A DNA stretch of 32,000 nucleotides, taken from the NCBI GenBank assembly GCA_002952755.1, contig CP025011.1, positions 1,200,001 through 1,232,000 on the forward strand. The letters are read 5' to 3'. Of this stretch, positions 5,820 through 27,905 are shown piece by piece. How positions within the stretch are numbered: position 1 is the stretch's first letter; each line of letters opens with the position of its first letter. Both the position numbers and the translations under genes were made by a program. Below the pieces are notes generated by a model. The model made no database searches and was not told where the DNA came from. It saw only the letters and a list, made by a program, of their open reading frames with translations. This stretch comes from Candidatus Saccharimonadota bacterium (GTDB taxonomy: Bacteria > Patescibacteriota > Saccharimonadia > Saccharimonadales > UBA4665).

Positions 5820-5839
5820 AGTATACTTATAGGCAGCAT

Positions 5840-7027
5840 ATGGTATATAAAAGTATTCTGATATTGGGACGCCAACCGGCAATTGGCCGCGCCGAGCTTG
5901 AAAGTCTGTATGGCGGTAGGCATCTTGAACCTATCAGTCAGCAGGCTATAGCCCTGGATATTGAGCCCGATACCATTGCCTTTGGGAGACTCGGCGGCAG
6001 TATCCGATTGGGCGTCGTACTTGCTGAAATACCAAGCAAGGAGTGGTCAGTATTAGCACAATATGTAGCCAAAATATTGCCAGAACGGTTGCGCCAGTTA
6101 CCCCAGGAAGGCAAGCTAAAACTCGGCCTCAGCGTCTTTGATAGTACAGTCGACAACCGCCAGCTATTGCGTACCGGGCTGGAATTAAAAAAGATTTGTA
6201 AGAAAACTGGACGCTCAGTACGCCTCGTTCCTAATACCGAGCCAGCGCTCAGCAGCGCTCAAGTCTTACACAATCAACTCACCGGGGATCTTGGCATCGA
6301 ATTCTTGCTTGTTCATAGCGGTACTAAGACGATTCTAGCGCAAACCACTGCCGTCCAGGACATTACCGCCTATGCAGACCGCGATCAAAATCGCCCTAAG
6401 CGAGATGCGCGCGTGGGTATGCTGCCACCCAAGCTGGCGCAGATCATCATCAATCTAGCCACCGGGCTACTAGAGCCGACGAACGCGCATGTCGTGCTCG
6501 ACCCTTTCTGCGGCACAGGGGTAATATTGCAGGAAGCAGCGCTCATGGGCTACGGTAGCTACGGCACAGACCTCGAGCCACGGATGATCGACTACTCTCG
6601 GGCAAATCTGGAATGGCTTGCCGGGCGCCACCATAGCCCACCCTCTACTCTAGAAATTGGTGACGCCACAACGTTTAGCTGGCAGCACCCCTTCTCGGCC
6701 GTCGCAGCTGAAACGTACTTGGGCAGACCGCTCAGCACTTGGCCTAATCCCGAAACCCTCCAAGAAGTAAGGAGCACCTGCAACACCATCCTCGAAAAAT
6801 ATCTGCAGAATATAGCTAGTCAAATACCGAGTGGTTTGCGTCTCTGTTTGGCCATACCGGCCTGGAAAGCTCCAAATGGGCACATTCACCACCTTCCACT
6901 TCTTGACCATCTCGAGAAAATGGGGTACAATCGAGTAAGTTTTGAGTGTGCTGAGGCTCACGATCTGGTCTACTATCGGCCAGAGCAAATTGTAGCCCGC
7001 GAGCTGCTCGTAATAACAAGGAAATAA
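5840..7027 (+). CDS. Putative RNA methyltransferase-fold protein (UPF0020/Trm11-RlmL-like) with an N-terminal THUMP-like region
   Basis: SAM motif I is VLDPFCGTGVILQEAALMG and motif II is YGTDLEP. At the expected motif IV position the sequence reads AAETYLGRP instead of (D/N)PPY. The N-terminal region resembles the RNA-binding modules of this family only loosely. Confidence 0.6.
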   Translation: MVYKSILILGRQPAIGRAELESLYGGRHLEPISQQAIALDIEPDTIAFGRLGGSIRLGVVLAEIPSKEWSVLAQYVAKILPERLRQLPQEGKLKLGLSVFDSTVDNRQLLRTGLELKKICKKTGRSVRLVPNTEPALSSAQVLHNQLTGDLGIEFLLVHSGTKTILAQTTAVQDITAYADRDQNRPKRDARVGMLPPKLAQIIINLATGLLEPTNAHVVLDPFCGTGVILQEAALMGYGSYGTDLEPRMIDYSRANLEWLAGRHHSPPSTLEIGDATTFSWQHPFSAVAAETYLGRPLSTWPNPETLQEVRSTCNTILEKYLQNIASQIPSGLRLCLAIPAWKAPNGHIHHLPLLDHLEKMGYNRVSFECAEAHDLVYYRPEQIVARELLVITRK

Positions 7028-20957: not shown

Positions 20958-21066
20958 GATCGTATGACTCCCTCTTTCGTCGTTTTCGGCTTACGACATA
21001 TTGTAACCCGAACTACCAGAGAAAACGAGTCTAATATGGTGTAAAAATGATTGCCAAAACTATTTT

Positions 21067-22969: not shown

Positions 22970-23683
22970 ATGAGTTTAGATGTAAAAATCCACGCCACGC
23001 AAACCAGCATTTTACGAGAACTACTGTTTCATCCCGAGGCAACCTTTGCAGTTTTGCAAAAGCCTACCGGTTTAACGAGCGATCACTTTAACTTTCATAT
23101 TGGGCGCCTTGTCGAACTGCAGCTGGTCGAGAAAAACGATTCCGGCGCTTACCACCTTACCACTCAGGGCAAAGAATATGCCAATCGTTTAGACACCGAT
23201 AACAACACTATCGAGCGGCAGCCTAAATCTGCAGTCATCCTGGCGCTAGAACGCGTTGGCACAAACGGCACAACGGAATATTTATTCCAGAAACGCCTCA
23301 AAAACCCCTATTTTGGTTACTGGGGGCTGCCAACCGGCAAATTACGCTGGGGTGAAACAATCGTCGAGGGAGCAGCTCGCGAGGCACAGGAAGAAGCTGG
23401 ACTCACTGCTAATTTCGTAATCGCCGGTGTCTATCACGAGCAGGTGCAACTAGCCGAAACAGGCGAACTCTTGGAAGATAAAATCTTTTTCGTAGCGCGG
23501 GGCACTCACCCGCGAGGAACATTGCAGTGCGACTTCGAGGGTGGGCACAATCAGTGGATGACCTTTGAACAAGCCTTCAAAAAGGATAAAAAGTTCGAAA
23601 GCTTTGCGCACGAAATCGATATCCTGAGTGGCAAACAATGGCTCGTCGAAGAAACAGTCGTCCTTACTAAAAAACAATTTTAA
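22970..23683 (+). CDS. Winged-helix (N-terminal) plus Nudix hydrolase (C-terminal) fusion protein
   Basis: The Nudix box GKLRWGETIVEGAAREAQEEAGL is intact and fits GX5EX7REUXEEXGU. The N-terminal ~70 aa resemble a MarR/ArsR-like wHTH (TSILRELLFHPEATFAVLQKPTGLTSDHFNFHIGRLVELQLVEK). An AAAGGAG SD is present. Confidence 0.8.
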   Translation: MSLDVKIHATQTSILRELLFHPEATFAVLQKPTGLTSDHFNFHIGRLVELQLVEKNDSGAYHLTTQGKEYANRLDTDNNTIERQPKSAVILALERVGTNGTTEYLFQKRLKNPYFGYWGLPTGKLRWGETIVEGAAREAQEEAGLTANFVIAGVYHEQVQLAETGELLEDKIFFVARGTHPRGTLQCDFEGGHNQWMTFEQAFKKDKKFESFAHEIDILSGKQWLVEETVVLTKKQF

Positions 23684-24468
23684 GCGCTGGTTTTTGAACG
23701 TTTCTGAAGCTCAGTAAGAGTAAGCTTAGTACGCGCGCGGGCGTATGCGCAAAATTCACACTCGCCGCCCATAATGCTTTCGCCTACTGGCGGCATATCT
23801 CCGTCCATACATGCTTTCATCTCAAGGAGCGTACGTTCAATCCAACTATCGCTGCCTGTGTATGGAATGACTTTGGTTCGAAATTCCACGCGGTCGTTAA
23901 ATCCATCCAGGTCAGCCCTCCCATTGGCATACACAAAGTATGCAGTGTCGCTCACCGTCAGCTCGTTGCGGCGCAAGAGCCACTGATACACCTCTACTTG
24001 ACGCTTGTAGCTGATTTGCCAGTCAGCATTAATATCAACCTCTTTGCCTTTAGAGGTCGCCTTATAGTCGACAACGATAACAGCGCCGTCCGGCGCCACC
24101 CATAGGTCGTCCACTCCACCGAAAATCAATAAGTTGGTTGGCTCGTGGACAAACTGGACACCGACGAATGTCTCGCGCCATTGATCGAGTTTTTCATGGC
24201 TAAACGGCACTGCATCAACTTTATACTCCACCATCAGCGGATGAGGTTCGCCCTTTACCCGATAGCCGTCAAACTCCTTTTTGAATAACTCATCAATCGT
24301 TTTGTTGATATTAAACGGCGGCCCTTCGGGGCGTTTAATCTTGAGACGTACATCAAGCCAAAAACAGCGCGGGCACTGTTTATAGAGCTCGATTTTCGAG
24401 CGACTCACCTTAAATGGTGTTGTCTGCCCTGGCCGATATGGCACAGAGCGCTCCCTCCAGTAATTCAT
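23680..24468 (-). CDS. PD-(D/E)XK nuclease family protein, Cas4/RecB-like with a Cys cluster
   Basis: It has a GGVDDL ... VVDYKAT core (D...D/E-x-K) and a QVEVYQWLL (QxxxY) motif. There is an N-terminal CPRC plus C-terminal C...CEFC cysteines. There is no CRISPR context. Confidence 0.7.
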   Translation of the reverse strand: MNYWRERSVPYRPGQTTPFKVSRSKIELYKQCPRCFWLDVRLKIKRPEGPPFNINKTIDELFKKEFDGYRVKGEPHPLMVEYKVDAVPFSHEKLDQWRETFVGVQFVHEPTNLLIFGGVDDLWVAPDGAVIVVDYKATSKGKEVDINADWQISYKRQVEVYQWLLRRNELTVSDTAYFVYANGRADLDGFNDRVEFRTKVIPYTGSDSWIERTLLEMKACMDGDMPPVGESIMGGECEFCAYARARTKLTLTELQKRSKTSA

Positions 24469-24488: not shown

Positions 24489-25742
24489 TTAAGCCGACTT
24501 GCGGATCAGAACAGCTAACGTCTCGATATGCGGTGTATGTGGAAAAAAGTTGAAGGCTTCGAAATAATCTATACTATAGGCATCCTGTAGTTTGGCGAGA
24601 TCGCGCGCTTGCGTTGCAGGATTGCAACTCAAATATATAATTTTTGGCGGCAATACTTCCAGCACATGGTTAACGATATGGTCGTGCAAACCAGCGCGCG
24701 GGGGGTCAAAGATAATAGGTGACGCCGCAGTGATCGCATCGAGCGCCTTTTCACTACTTGTTTCGATAACGGTCGCTTCAAGCGTACTTGTGGAAGCGTT
24801 CACTCTAGCCATGGCAGCGCTGGCGGTATCCAGTTCCACTAGTTCGACCTTCTTCGTTGCCACACTGAGTCCAATCGTCCCTACCCCAGCGTACATATCA
24901 ACGATTTCCGAAGCGTCACAATGCTCTCGGATACGGGCAAGCGTTTCACTAAAGATCGGGATATTGACCTGAAAAAACGAATCGACATCGTATATAAATT
25001 GCCTGCCCAGCAGCTCGTCGCTGAGCGTCGCTTCCCCAAGTTCATACAGCAATCTGGTGGGCACTGACGCAGGGCTCTTTGGGTTAGAATAATATACTCG
25101 TAGGCCCTTTATCTCAGGTGGCAAAGTTATTTTGCGGAAAGTTTCGAGCTTTACAAATAAAGCCGCAACCGTGTCACCTCGCTGATTACAGCGCACCACC
25201 ACGCTTTTAAGATCACCGGCACGAGGCGTACTTTTACGTAGTTCGACAACGAGCGCCCGGGCGCCGGCGTCTACTGCCGGTAGTGCAAGCTCACTTCCAT
25301 GCACAATCGTCTTTTGGTGCGTACCACGATTAAAAAGGGCCAAGTGTAATCCGTCGTCATCGCCCCAAAACGAATACTCCATCTTATTACGATACCGCCA
25401 TTCCTCACCTGCAGCAGTCATCCGAAAATCAGGAATTGAAACGTGTGCTTGAGAAAATAGCTCCCCTACGATACCTTTTTTATACTCATTTTCGGCGCTA
25501 AACTGCACAATCTGCCAAGGGCTCGTGGCCAGATAATTCTTTTCCCGCGGCTCAGCTCTCACCGGCGACCGCTCAATAATATCTACGGTAACTGCCTCGG
25601 CGTAGGATTTCTTCCCCTTTAATACATCAATCGTGACGCGCTCACCTGGCAAGGCGCCCCACACAAAGACCCTACGGCCATCAGGCAGCGTGCCTAGCCC
25701 CTGCCCGCCGTGCACCATTTTTTCAATGACAACCTCTACCAT
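24489..25742 (-). CDS. TRAM-domain class I SAM-dependent RNA (uracil-5)-methyltransferase (RlmD/TrmA family)
   Basis: It has an N-terminal TRAM-like beta barrel (HGGQGLGTLPDGRRVFVWGALPGERV), then DMYAGVGTIG and FDPPRAGL. The catalytic Cys lies in YLSCNPAT, and FNFFPHTPHIETL is present. No Fe-S Cys cluster was seen. Confidence 0.85.
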   Translation of the reverse strand: MVEVVIEKMVHGGQGLGTLPDGRRVFVWGALPGERVTIDVLKGKKSYAEAVTVDIIERSPVRAEPREKNYLATSPWQIVQFSAENEYKKGIVGELFSQAHVSIPDFRMTAAGEEWRYRNKMEYSFWGDDDGLHLALFNRGTHQKTIVHGSELALPAVDAGARALVVELRKSTPRAGDLKSVVVRCNQRGDTVAALFVKLETFRKITLPPEIKGLRVYYSNPKSPASVPTRLLYELGEATLSDELLGRQFIYDVDSFFQVNIPIFSETLARIREHCDASEIVDMYAGVGTIGLSVATKKVELVELDTASAAMARVNASTSTLEATVIETSSEKALDAITAASPIIFDPPRAGLHDHIVNHVLEVLPPKIIYLSCNPATQARDLAKLQDAYSIDYFEAFNFFPHTPHIETLAVLIRKSA

Positions 25743-25765: not shown

Positions 25766-26401
25766 CTATTTCGTTACTAATTTGAGTAGTTCTGTGGGGC
25801 GATCGATGATACGGTTAGCGTGCGCCTGCTTAAGAGCATGCCGATTATTATAGCCCCATGCCACGGCCACGTAAGGCATACCAGCACGTCTAGCGGCCTC
25901 CACATCACGTATCTCGTCGCCAACATAGTAACATTCGCTCAACGGTATTTGGCGCTCCTGTGTAATTTTAGTTAGAGTGCGCGCTTTAGAAAAGAGTCCA
26001 ATACCACCATATACTTGCTCGAAGTACTGCTCCATGCCGTTATTCTGTAAAAAGAGGCTAATATTTCGGTTACTATTAGTACTTACAATTAGCAGCCGGT
26101 GCCCATCAGCATGTAATTGTGCAACTACTCCCTTCACACCCTTGATTGCCTGCACCTGGCTCATTTGCTGTCGCACGGCTTTACGACCCTCGTACACAAT
26201 ATAGGGCAATTGCCACCATCGTGCTCCTACCCGCTTAAGGGCCTGGCGCGCAGATAAACCACGTAAAATTTCAATCTCTTCGTCGTCTGTTGCACGACTG
26301 CTGCGTATACGCCTGGTGAGCTTACGAAATACTCCAACCGCTATAAAGAATGTATCTGCCAGTGTCCCATCAAAGTCAAAAATCAGTGTACTCATTGACA
26401 A
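25766..26401 (-). CDS. HAD-IA family hydrolase (phosphoglycolate-phosphatase-like)
   Basis: The HAD motifs are present: motif I FDFDGTLADT, motif II VSTNS and motif III/IV K...YVGDEIRD. Confidence 0.85.
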   Translation of the reverse strand: MSMSTLIFDFDGTLADTFFIAVGVFRKLTRRIRSSRATDDEEIEILRGLSARQALKRVGARWWQLPYIVYEGRKAVRQQMSQVQAIKGVKGVVAQLHADGHRLLIVSTNSNRNISLFLQNNGMEQYFEQVYGGIGLFSKARTLTKITQERQIPLSECYYVGDEIRDVEAARRAGMPYVAVAWGYNNRHALKQAHANRIIDRPTELLKLVTK

Positions 26402-26410
26402 TAATCAAAT

Positions 26411-27226
26411 CTAACGCACTCCTGTTGCGACCTGCCATGCAACTGCGCTAGCCATAGCAAAACCGAGTAGCAGATACATCTTTTCTGTATAGACAACGTT
26501 CGTCCATTGGCCACGCCCTTTCCACCGGAAAGCGGTAGCCATAACAAACGCTCCCGAGAATATGAAGGTACTCGCATAGACTGCCCAAAGATACGCGGGC
26601 ACGTGACCACCATATGCAGCAGCAGCTACAACACTCTTTATAATAACCACCCACGGCATAACTGCGCCCACTCCAGCCAACACCGCCAGCAACTTATGCA
26701 AACCAGAGCGATTCGCACCGAGTAGCTCTACCGACAATGCAAGAAGTGAGGCCAAAAATACACTCATCCATATAAAACTAAGTGTTGTGAGATCATTCAG
26801 GCCACTCATAAGGCTAAGTGTCGTGAGTATCAGACCGCCGCCAAGACCAATCGTCAACCATCGTATCTTATTCACTCCACGCTCCAAGCTCGCCAGGTAT
26901 TTCTTTTTACCTGAAGTAGCAGCGTACATATGCCCGGCTGCAAAAATAAGCAAGAAAGCGACCGCCACGTACGACAAGCGTACATCAAATAAATGCCGCG
27001 TTGCCGTCGCGAGCACCTGGTGCTTATTGGCCGTGGTGGCAAGTTGGTCGACAGAGGGGTATCGCACTGTTATTGCTTCACTAAATTTATTGCCAACGAT
27101 TACCACACCTACGGCTTGCGCCGCTAGGAATAGCGCTGCTCTTAGATTCCATATACCTAATGTTTGTTGTTTTGCGGGCGCGACAACTGTCTCGCTCTTC
27201 TTATTCGTCGTTGCTTTTTTTGCCAT
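26411..27226 (-). CDS. Heliorhodopsin-family 7-TM protein apparently lacking the retinal-binding Lys
   Basis: It has seven TM helices. YLASLERGVNKIRWLTIGLGGG and RWKGRGQWTNVVYTEKMYLLLGFAMASAVAWQVATG align, from my memory of heliorhodopsin 48C12, to YSASLMKNQNIFRWVEYSLSSS and QYKGKGKWSNYLRGERAYIVLSLVAKSALAWQIFSG. The Schiff-base Lys position is Ala and the counterion Glu position is Thr. Confidence 0.7.
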   Translation of the reverse strand: MAKKATTNKKSETVVAPAKQQTLGIWNLRAALFLAAQAVGVVIVGNKFSEAITVRYPSVDQLATTANKHQVLATATRHLFDVRLSYVAVAFLLIFAAGHMYAATSGKKKYLASLERGVNKIRWLTIGLGGGLILTTLSLMSGLNDLTTLSFIWMSVFLASLLALSVELLGANRSGLHKLLAVLAGVGAVMPWVVIIKSVVAAAAYGGHVPAYLWAVYASTFIFSGAFVMATAFRWKGRGQWTNVVYTEKMYLLLGFAMASAVAWQVATGVR

Positions 27227-27232
27227 AGGTTA

Positions 27233-27241
27233 ACTATAGCA
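27233..27241 (-). promoter_or_regulatory. Extended -10 element (TGCTATAGT) for the heliorhodopsin-like gene, in leaderless geometry
   Basis: On the minus strand, TGCTATAGT (27241..27233) is followed by 6 nt (taacct) and then the ATG at 27226. There is no SD. Confidence 0.5.
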
Positions 27242-27321: not shown

Positions 27322-27807
27322 CTACAAAGGCTCGTACGGAACAAGGCCTACGCCTATGCCGGTCTTTTCGCTAAACTTCTGGTGATATTCTTCCGCTTTG
27401 TAAAATGGCCCCGCAGGTGTAATCTCGGTCACTATGCGCGTATCAAGTGCTCGCTGTGTAGCGTTACGGACTTGGATGGCTACGTTATGCTGCTCTTCGT
27501 CGAAATAAAAAATTGTCGAGCGGTATGCATCACCATTATCCGGACCCTGGTACTGTAATTCGGTAGGGTCGTGCAAACGAAAAAAATGCTTAAGGAGTAT
27601 TTCGTAGCTCACTTTGCCCGGATCAAACTCTACAAATGTCACTTCGACATGACCCGTGGATCGAGTTGCCACATCATCATAGGTAGGATTCTTGGTATGC
27701 CCGCCAGTATACCCTACTATTGTCCGCAGTACCCCCGGGATTTGATCAAAATAATACTGGACACCCCAAAAACAACCGGCCGCGAATAGTGCCTTTTGCA
27801 TATTCAT
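27322..27807 (-). CDS. msrA: Peptide methionine (S)-sulfoxide reductase MsrA
   Basis: It carries the catalytic GCFWG motif (FAAGCFWGVQYYF) plus GYTGG and HDPT. The track start at 27825 is a TTG, and in-frame ATGs at 27807 and 27801 are more plausible. Confidence 0.92.
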   Translation of the reverse strand: MNMQKALFAAGCFWGVQYYFDQIPGVLRTIVGYTGGHTKNPTYDDVATRSTGHVEVTFVEFDPGKVSYEILLKHFFRLHDPTELQYQGPDNGDAYRSTIFYFDEEQHNVAIQVRNATQRALDTRIVTEITPAGPFYKAEEYHQKFSEKTGIGVGLVPYEPL

Positions 27808-27905
27808 ACAGCCAGTATATATCAAGCATCAAGCACGAGATCTGGTATACTGATCACATGAATCGCTAGTCCAGCACCTCCCACTAACAGCATAAAGGAC
27901 TAGCT

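Follow-up and report, generated by a model that had tools for sequence, protein, structure and literature searches.

A heliorhodopsin-family protein without the retinal-binding lysine at a conserved locus of Saccharimonadia

Fungal opsin-related proteins are opsin homologues that lack the retinal lysine. Among the type-1 rhodopsins, homologues without this lysine (Lys-less) have been described as betaproteobacterial Rh-noK, freshwater FArhodopsins and haloarchaeal opsins, and Rh-noK, which is encoded in tandem with a functional pump, regains pumping when the lysine is restored (PMC10308929). The physiological role of the heliorhodopsins (HeRs) is debated. Canonical HeRs have been reported to bind and up-regulate the enzyme of an adjacent gene through positively charged cytoplasmic loops; for AbHeR this enzyme is glutamine synthetase (PMC9529153), for TfHeR it is CPD photolyase (PMC9769723). 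We found no description of Lys-less HeRs in the full-text literature, with reviews in subscription journals lying outside the scope of this search. Rhodopsin surveys discard sequences without the lysine of transmembrane helix 7 (TM7) (PMC9601134; PMC13295031) or check each candidate for a TM7 retinal-binding motif (PMC9166423), and such filters would explain this gap. Here we describe a Lys-less HeR-family gene at 26411..27226 on the minus strand (-) of a 32,000-nucleotide stretch of DNA, hereafter the window, from Candidatus Saccharimonadota bacterium (GCA_002952755.1, contig CP025011.1, positions 1,200,001 to 1,232,000); all positions are counted within the window. We are highly confident that the gene encodes a light-blind but selectively maintained and functional HeR orthologue. 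An earlier inspection of the DNA letters alone (the sequence-only reading) had proposed an opsin scaffold that lacks the Schiff-base lysine and the counterion glutamate and has a light-independent function.

Family membership and the former retinal site

The gene encodes 271 amino acids plus a stop codon, with seven transmembrane helices and an N-terminus reading MAKKATTNKK. The protein matched Pfam PF18761 Heliorhodopsin over residues 24-269 (E=3.5e-37; 128.5 bits, cut-off 26.7) and the NCBIfam equivalog model NF038020 HeR with 115.1 bits (curated cut-off 100). A phmmer search of all PDB chains returned heliorhodopsins only, with TaHeR (6is6) at 4.9e-21 and 48C12 (6su3) at 2.4e-16. An AlphaFold2 model built with 19 homologues as input had seven long helices, with a mean predicted local distance difference test (pLDDT) of 81 and a predicted TM-score (pTM) of 0.77. 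Foldseek superposed the model best on TaHeR 6is6 and 48C12 6su3_A, with TM-scores of 0.76-0.77 over the query length and 0.81-0.83 over the target length. All of its top 10 matches were HeR entries (target-normalised TM-score 0.77-0.84), and type-1 rhodopsins scored far more weakly, with E-values of 3e-4 or worse. The window gene is a true member of the heliorhodopsin family with the HeR fold, as had been proposed from motifs shared with 48C12; every motif cited at that time (KIRWLTIGLGGG, RWKGRGQWT, LGFAMASAVAWQ, AAGHMY and TEKMY) was found in the open reading frame (ORF).

When Lys and Arg were counted by the helices of the model, 18 fell in the N-terminal tail and the BC, DE and FG loops, whereas the AB, CD and EF loops together with the C-terminal tail had 7. 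This distribution of 18 cytoplasmic versus 7 extracellular charges follows the positive-inside pattern and indicates a predicted N-in topology, inverted as in other HeRs. The cytoplasmic N-terminal tail (27167-27226, -) is of low complexity and rich in Lys, Ala, Thr and Pro. Its length is highly variable across homologues, from about 20 to 90 residues (P0017 residues 1-90, and the loci L005 and L006; example 'KKTPKKTTKKTSAKTAAAKNTAKKAEAK'). Lys-containing and Lys-less forms both have such a tail, which can be likened to the nucleic-acid-binding repeats of histone-H1-like proteins and HU tails.

Residues were mapped with printed HMMER pairwise alignments and with a 170-sequence MAFFT alignment that included 48C12 residues 15-251. 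Both placed Ala259 (codon GCT, 26450..26452, -) at the position of the Schiff-base lysine (48C12 K241, TaHeR K238) and Thr125 (codon ACG, 26852..26854, -) at that of the counterion glutamate (48C12 E107; E107/E108), and these are the same two replacements that the sequence-only reading had named. In the HMMER alignment the TaHeR segment 'EKVYIILSLVAKSALAWQV' paired without gaps with 'EKMYLLLGFAMASAVAWQV' of the window protein, and TaHeR 'RWFEYSISAS' stood opposite 'RWLTIGLGGG'. The same protein was called, letter for letter, on three independent Logan contigs and on one 1.45-Mb NCBI/JGI contig, and the GCT codon of Ala259 is at least two substitutions away from any Lys codon; a sequencing error is therefore excluded.

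The surroundings of the former Schiff base have changed as well. In TM3, the codons of Gly129-Gly130-Gly131 in the motif GLGGG (26834..26842, -) take the place of Ser111-113, which in 48C12 stabilise the counterion and link helices C and D (PMC7049168). The counterion-stabilising residues Ser76, Ser111 and Ser237 are all gone, with Phe95, Gly129 and Gly255 in their positions. Other changes relative to 48C12 are H23 to Leu34, Y108 to Ile, Q213 to Thr, Q216 to Arg234, Y226 to Val244 and Y179 to Ser198. The residues retained are, in 48C12 numbering, N16, Q26, H80, Y92, N101, R104, W105, E149, P172, W173, E230, W246 and Q247.

The family alignment and a position check of every intramembrane Lys revealed no pocket-facing or mid-membrane Lys in the window protein. 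Its only intramembrane lysines are K197, beside the position of the dimer contact Y179, and K249. The latter is the sole Lys of TM7 and lies in the motif TEKMY, where the earlier inspection had put it at the start of the helix; it aligned with 48C12 R231 at the cytoplasmic helix start, a position at which canonical HeRs bear K or R in addition to K241. A rhodopsin needs the lysine to hold its chromophore covalently, and it needs a counterion for the protonated Schiff base that absorbs visible light. Having lost the Schiff-base Lys, the counterion Glu and the surrounding serines, the window protein would be unable to form a protonated retinal Schiff base and is predicted from its residues to be light-blind in the visible range.

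Two residues near the former dimer contact were also noted. Lys197 (26636-26638, -), which is conserved in the subgroup of the window protein, adjoins Ser198, the replacement of the dimer-contact Tyr (48C12 Y179). Asp145 (26792-26794, -) corresponds to the dimer contact D127 of 48C12 and is kept. As a speculation, a Lys197-Asp145 salt bridge might stand in for the Tyr-Asp hydrogen bond of the HeR dimer.

The polar residues of the Schiff-base cavity are in part retained, as N27, H99, Y110, N119, R122 and E248, together with E167, and the positions of H23, Q216 and Y226 are changed. An alternative reading of the protein is a light-independent conduit, through which protons or ions would leak, solutes pass or lipids be scrambled by way of the polar cavity and the Gly-rich TM3. 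Loss of the retinal and its lysine would open the centre of the bundle, where R122, E167, E248, N27, N119 and Y110 are still present. Some viral HeRs are reported to transport protons (cited in PMC10308929), and a light-independent scramblase activity has been reported for a proteorhodopsin (PMC10730872). The extracellular half of the protein, however, stays hydrophobic, no new conserved polar or charged transmembrane residue was found except Arg234 at the cytoplasmic end, and no transporter-like partner genes lie nearby. We therefore regard a conduit as quite unlikely.

A Lys-less clade within the heliorhodopsin family

A first homology search gave 17 more relatives (P0002-P0018) with 33-62% identity to the window protein, and one canonical HeR with 27% identity. 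Among the 17 relatives the Lys was absent from all 16 sequences that cover the TM7 position, and the Glu was absent from all 17. Word-indexed profile searches of proteins returned 18 and 13 proteins. A Lys-less profile was then scored against 1.84 billion representative proteins, and its matches in the HeR family numbered 2131 representatives at E<=1e-3, of which 363 reached E<=1e-30. In a MAFFT alignment of the best 150 profile matches together with the first set, Lys occupied the K241 column in only 52, with 72 other Lys-less sequences; this sample is skewed towards Lys-less forms, as the query profile was itself Lys-less.

In a neighbour-joining tree the window protein fell inside a uniformly Lys-less and Glu-less clade of 41 representatives (50% identity clusters), in none of which is K241 present or position 107 acidic. 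The absence of the lysine is thus lineage-wide and not a feature of one odd protein. The clade also has a signature of its own. K241 is replaced by Ala in 73%, E107 by Gly, Ala, Thr or Ser, and S76 by Phe in 73%; Ser111, Ser112 and Ser113 are Gly in 76%, 85% and 78%, respectively. Y108 has become Leu or Phe, M141 Ala or Gly, I142 Gly, Ala, Cys or Ser, Q213 Thr (59%), Q216 Arg (88%), Y226 Thr, Val or Ser, and Y179 Ser, Thr, Gly or Ala. Other positions are kept across the clade, namely E230 (100%), W105 (98%), R104 (95%) and E149 (83%), and also N16, Y92, P172 and W173. The interior of these proteins is rebuilt and not decaying. The His equivalent to H80, which the sequence-only reading had described as kept, is present as His99 in the window protein, but across the clade only 20% have His at that position.

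The possibility that the protein is still a photoreceptor, with its retinal attached to a relocated Lys or bound otherwise than as a Schiff base, and senses ultraviolet or blue light, was weighed against these alignments. Bacteriorhodopsin has been engineered to work with a relocated retinal lysine, some animal opsins also function with one (PMC13466386), and a sister subclade bears a conserved Lys in helix B at the 48C12 L71 position. The window protein has Ala at this place, and on a helical wheel position 71 lies off the face formed by the pocket positions 69, 72, 73, 76 and 80. As the counterion and the Schiff-base serines are also gone and no mid-membrane Lys is conserved in the clade, we consider a remaining photoreceptor function extremely improbable.

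The sister subclade (P0006, P0007, P0009, P0011-P0015 and P0022) is of interest in its own right. Its helix B Lys (motif 'VAKFLLIF') sits in an otherwise hydrophobic extracellular half, and a buried conserved Lys is unusual. The equivalent residue in the window protein is Ala90 (codon 26957-26959, -), and this absence and the orientation away from the pocket led us to reject the helix B Lys as a relocated Schiff-base site of the window protein; in the subclade itself it might still be a chromophore site. We also considered a conserved extracellular AB-loop motif as a functional site specific to the Lys-less clade; it was dropped, being present in Lys-containing relatives too.

In some Lys-less sequences of the HeR family the counterion Glu is still there and the rest of the pocket is canonical. 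A change of K to Y with Glu kept was seen four times (P0045, P0070, P0091 and P0103), and of K to L with Glu kept once (L053). Their lysine seems to have been lost recently or in a different way, and they may not behave like the remodelled clade.

Chromosomal locus, selection and promoter

A survey of related genomes for Lys-containing and Lys-less paralogues had been suggested along with the sequence-only reading. Lys-containing orthologues were found at the same locus. Two such HeRs, P0173 (L017) and P0171 (L020, GCA_964600185.1), have the canonical E107, Y108, H80, S237 and K241 and lie in the order PMSR, HeR, HAD, RlmD-like, then PDDEXK, then SerRS and HPF, which is the same slot as that of the window gene. 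These HeRs are only 30% identical to the window protein, and the SerRS of the window is 70% identical to that of the P0173/P0171 hosts, compared with 72-82% for the core-clade Lys-less genomes (several at 72-73%). Because a canonical Lys/Glu HeR fills the same locus in related genomes, the Lys-less gene is its positional orthologue, and the loss of the lysine took place at this locus. The same block in two more distant genomes holds other Lys-less types: P0175 has Gly at E107 and Leu at K241 with most other key positions canonical, and P0177 has Asp at E107 and Ala at K241. The window SerRS is 56% and 41% identical to those of two distant genomes that bear other Lys-less types.

In the window the block consists of a TrmB-family regulator and an ABC-F gene (divergent), followed by msrA, the HeR-like gene, the HAD gene, the RlmD-like gene and the PD-(D/E)XK gene; farther along are NUDIX, SerRS, HPF, SecA, M16 peptidase and RF1. 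The same block surrounds Lys-less homologues on other contigs. The upstream neighbour msrA (27322..27807, -) encodes a peptide-methionine (S)-S-oxide reductase (PMSR) of 161 amino acids (TIGR00401, 179.8 bits against a cut-off of 108). Its start is likely the ATG at 27807 and not the TTG at 27825 of the ORF list; TATACT lies 6 nt upstream of this ATG, and gene callers also give 161 amino acids. Downstream, an HAD-IA family phosphatase gene (25766..26395, -) starts 15 nt past the HeR stop codon on the same strand; its product is phosphoglycolate-phosphatase-like and scored below the equivalog cut-offs. Two further members of the conserved syntenic block are an RlmD/TrmA-family RNA uracil-C5 methyltransferase (24489..25742, -) and a PD-(D/E)XK (Cas4-like) nuclease-family protein (23680..24468, -). 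The latter reached 34.8 bits with TIGR00372, below the cut-off, has a C-terminal Cys cluster (CEFCAY) and belongs to the block in most related genomes; no CRISPR context was found near it within the window.

A locus search with a 7-sequence Lys-less alignment gave four genome loci, none of them from the genome of the window. The contigs of Lys-less loci are labelled Candidatus Saccharibacteria or Saccharimonadales (L005-L007), with one labelled 'Bacillota bacterium', and P0010 is labelled Saccharimonadales. The exception, L004 (DATIJU010000014.1, 'Bacillota bacterium SMAG_U15699'), has the gene order of the window and a SerRS 82% identical to that of the window, and for these two reasons its label is probably a misclassification. 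The labels, the SerRS identity and the gene order also point to a Saccharimonadales origin of the window. NCBI annotates its Lys-less protein as 'heliorhodopsin HeR', which implies a photoreceptor. Directly upstream of HeR, a PMSR gene was present in the window and in 10/10 other genome or assembly loci that have upstream sequence, and HAD was immediately downstream in most genome loci. In L015 (the P0038 locus), which belongs to a clade member with 34% identity, the order is HAD, msrA and HeR-like, so that the three genes stay together despite a rearrangement. Its HAD is longer (271 amino acids) and possibly a different paralogue. This rearrangement gives mild support for a functional link of HeR, HAD and msrA.

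Patterns common to Lys-containing and Lys-less forms were also surveyed on metagenome contigs from JGI, ENA and other sources. The 80 HeR loci obtained were sorted by the residue in the K241 column and by flanking homologues of the window's neighbours. Ten of the 36 syntenic loci, those with window-type neighbours, were Lys-less and 26 had the Lys; all 44 HeR loci elsewhere had the Lys and none was without it. Lys absence was therefore associated with synteny (10/36 vs 0/44, Fisher's exact p=1.5e-4). Among the ten Lys-less loci six were of the window-clade type and four were otherwise canonical, with paired or single changes, as can be seen when the Lys-less L035 ('RWIGY...SLVAQTALAWQIFAG') is set against the Lys-containing L026 ('RWIEY...SLVAKTALAWQIFAG'). 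The residue patterns and a crude tree suggest repeated loss of the lysine in this lineage, on three occasions at the least and probably on five or more.

Purifying selection on the Lys-less gene was evident from several comparisons. Most pairs were saturated at synonymous sites, and the sole reliable pair, L004 vs L014, had a nonsynonymous rate (dN) of 0.080 and a synonymous rate (dS) of 1.29, giving a dN/dS of 0.06. Full-length intact ORFs were found in all 41 clade representatives and in all retrieved loci. One Lys-less pair had 87% HeR identity at 93% SerRS identity, as compared to 74% HeR identity at 92% SerRS identity for a Lys-containing pair; between hosts that have diverged equally, the Lys-less protein is conserved no less than its Lys-containing orthologue. 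The light-independent function proposed earlier thus gains indirect support from the uniformly Lys-less clade, the low dN/dS, the conservation relative to Lys-containing forms and the conserved promoter described below.

These data also bear on whether the gene is a decaying relic, drifting to loss where light sensing is useless in a dark or soil habitat or for want of retinal. The clade members are only 33-62% identical to the window protein while SerRS is 72-82% identical in the same genomes. Several of the Lys-less loci come from metagenome-assembled genomes (MAGs) with SMAG-prefixed isolate names, a prefix that we take to denote a soil-MAG catalogue. Saccharibacteria are also without retinal biosynthesis (PMC9296517). 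Decay is nevertheless hard to reconcile with the intact ORFs, the dN/dS of 0.06, a conservation that equals or exceeds that of Lys-containing orthologues, the fixation of clade-specific residues (F76, GGG and R216) and a promoter conserved to the base, and we consider a relic highly improbable.

The occupied slot is relevant to a further explanation, that the protein is a regulatory subunit which heterodimerises, in the manner of Rh-noK, with a Lys-containing rhodopsin encoded elsewhere in the genome. HeRs are dimers (PMC7049168), Rh-noK beside a functional proteorhodopsin provides a precedent (PMC10308929), and the protein keeps Asp145, the D127 equivalent, and has Lys197 next to the Y179 position. 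Yet the Lys-less gene occupies the slot that a Lys-containing HeR has in related genomes and so replaces a functional copy rather than accompanying it. A hidden Markov model (HMM) scan found a single HeR gene in the 32-kb window and in each retrieved locus, and the clade no longer has the dimer contact Tyr179. We find this explanation very unlikely.

Regarding expression, the extended -10 box TGCTATAGT (27233-27241, -) lies exactly 6 nt upstream of the HeR ATG, in agreement with the earlier claim that the gene has its own promoter. The box GTG(C/A)TATAGT was present 6 nt before the ATG in 10/13 distinct homologous loci and 8 nt before it in one more, and it persists also where it adjoins the stop codon of msrA with no gap. 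A sigma-70 scan missed the HeR promoter, as it demands a -35 box; no -35 box was found, nor any Shine-Dalgarno sequence before the gene. With the -10 box only 6 nt before the ATG, the HeR mRNA would be leaderless and start at or next to the start codon, and the conservation of the promoter suggests that the HeR gene is independently expressed. The arrangement TATAnT-N6-ATG was also seen at msrA (ATG 27807), which is probably leaderless too with its start at 27807, and at the ORFs starting at 5840 and 21047, whose ATG follows 6 nt after a TATAGG or TATGGT box (5828-5842, +; 21035-21049, +). This -10-only leaderless style looks like a general feature of the genome and not one particular to the HeR gene.

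Proposed function and comparison with known systems

We propose that the window protein retains that part of the HeR role which needs no light. It would be a scaffold in the membrane, constitutive ('dark-locked') in its action, and would bind and tune a soluble enzyme of the cytoplasm. As candidate partner we put first the HAD-family phosphatase, whose gene is the next one downstream, and second MsrA, whose gene is the next one upstream. The action would run through the retained cytoplasm-facing polar cluster (N27, Y110, N119, R122, W123, E167 and E248), to whose face the new conserved Arg234 would be added, and through the Lys/Arg-rich cytoplasmic loops, which are kept (K107-K109, R116, K120, R122, R234, K236 and R238). 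HeRs of monoderms and of bacteria belonging to the candidate phyla radiation (CPR) were suggested earlier to be tied to oxidative-stress protection (PMC9166423), and MsrA as a partner would fit this suggestion. Taken as a whole package, a light-blind HeR orthologue combined with a scaffold-partner mechanism, the proposal could equally well prove right or wrong; the specific mechanism of partner regulation is put forward tentatively. Extended to the family, it would mean that the core function of HeRs is retinal-independent, namely enzyme binding or tuning at the membrane (HAD and/or MsrA), and that light is an optional added modulator, a generalisation that we consider doubtful.

Several observations weigh against this proposal. 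The partner idea rests on gene order in a wholly syntenic block, and adjacency may reflect vertical inheritance. HAD was immediately downstream of HeR in 9/9 Lys-less metagenome loci but in 13/22 of the Lys-containing syntenic ones, thus missing from 9/22, and adjacency of msrA is not universal, with msrA immediately upstream in 2/4 Lys-less and 6/16 Lys-containing metagenome loci. Distances of HeR and HAD were correlated (r=0.91, partial 0.84), but no better than those of HeR and RlmD, the control (0.90, partial 0.84), and this gives no specific signal of co-evolution. A Lys-containing HeR or a type-1 rhodopsin paralogue may be encoded outside the 32-kb window. Finally, the pocket positions of the clade are only marginally more conserved than other transmembrane columns (permutation P=0.07); the former retinal pocket might be collapsed, filled or enlarged, and non-covalent binding of retinal or another ligand may be compatible with the residues present.

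The last point leads to the alternative that the remodelled interior is a non-covalent site for a ligand (a host isoprenoid, carotenoid, quinone or lipid), making the protein a chemosensor or carrier. A lining of small residues (GLGGG, Ala259, Gly255, Ala159, Ser160, Ser224, Gly225 and Thr231) would enlarge the pocket. Most pocket positions are smaller in the clade, several of them clade-fixed (G111, G112, G113, A241 and T213, at the percentages given above), and P172 and W173, near the beta-ionone site, are retained. Saccharibacteria rely on host-derived lipids and cofactors, which would suit such a role. An entry route could be provided by the lateral fenestration of HeRs, which lets retinal or lipid tails in (PMC7049168; PMC9296517). 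On the other hand, the Gly/Ala-rich faces of helices C and G fit equally well with tighter packing that closes the pocket, the change of S76 to Phe sets a bulky side chain right at the Schiff-base site, and the pocket conservation is not significantly above the transmembrane background. A ligand site therefore seems unlikely to us. In a more radical variant, the Gly/Ala-lined interior with Phe95 and Arg234 may form a new site for a host-derived small molecule.

The Lys-less clade has consequences for how HeRs are studied. Lys-less forms are a natural experiment at the same locus and with the same neighbours: a function common to both forms would be the light-independent part of the HeR role, and a function of Lys-containing forms only would be the light-dependent part. 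The locus also offers concrete candidate partners, the HAD phosphatase and MsrA. If the core function is indeed retinal-independent, Saccharimonadia would offer repeated 'dark-locked' HeRs (at least the 41-cluster clade, and several single losses), with light-competent orthologues in the same chromosomal slot. For annotation, the NCBI HeR model names the Lys-less protein P0004 'heliorhodopsin HeR', and because Lys-less proteins receive this name, genome-based inferences of light sensing in CPR bacteria would be inflated by HeRs that cannot be photoreceptors.

Compared with the canonical HeRs 48C12 (6su3) and TaHeR (6is6), the window protein belongs to the same family and shares the predicted seven-helix fold and N-in topology, but is without the Schiff-base Lys. 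The Lys-containing HeRs P0173 and P0171 share with it the locus and gene order, the AB-loop motif (Y56, D60, A75, R77/H78 and D81) and the Lys-rich N-terminal tail, whereas every Schiff-base and pocket position is canonical in them, unlike in the window protein. With the AbHeR and TfHeR pairs it has in common the Lys/Arg-rich cytoplasmic loops and tightly linked enzyme genes; the candidate partners differ (HAD phosphatase and MsrA), and regulation here could not be light-gated. The Lys-less type-1 opsins likewise have a rhodopsin fold selected after loss of the Lys, with a presumed light-independent or regulatory role, but they belong to a different rhodopsin family and have the opposite topology. 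In contrast to Rh-noK, the window gene replaces the canonical copy, with no tandem Lys-containing rhodopsin in the 32-kb window, and its counterion and surroundings are remodelled. Loss of the retinal lysine, earlier described only in type-1 rhodopsins, thus also occurs in the heliorhodopsin family, where it is widespread in a CPR lineage.

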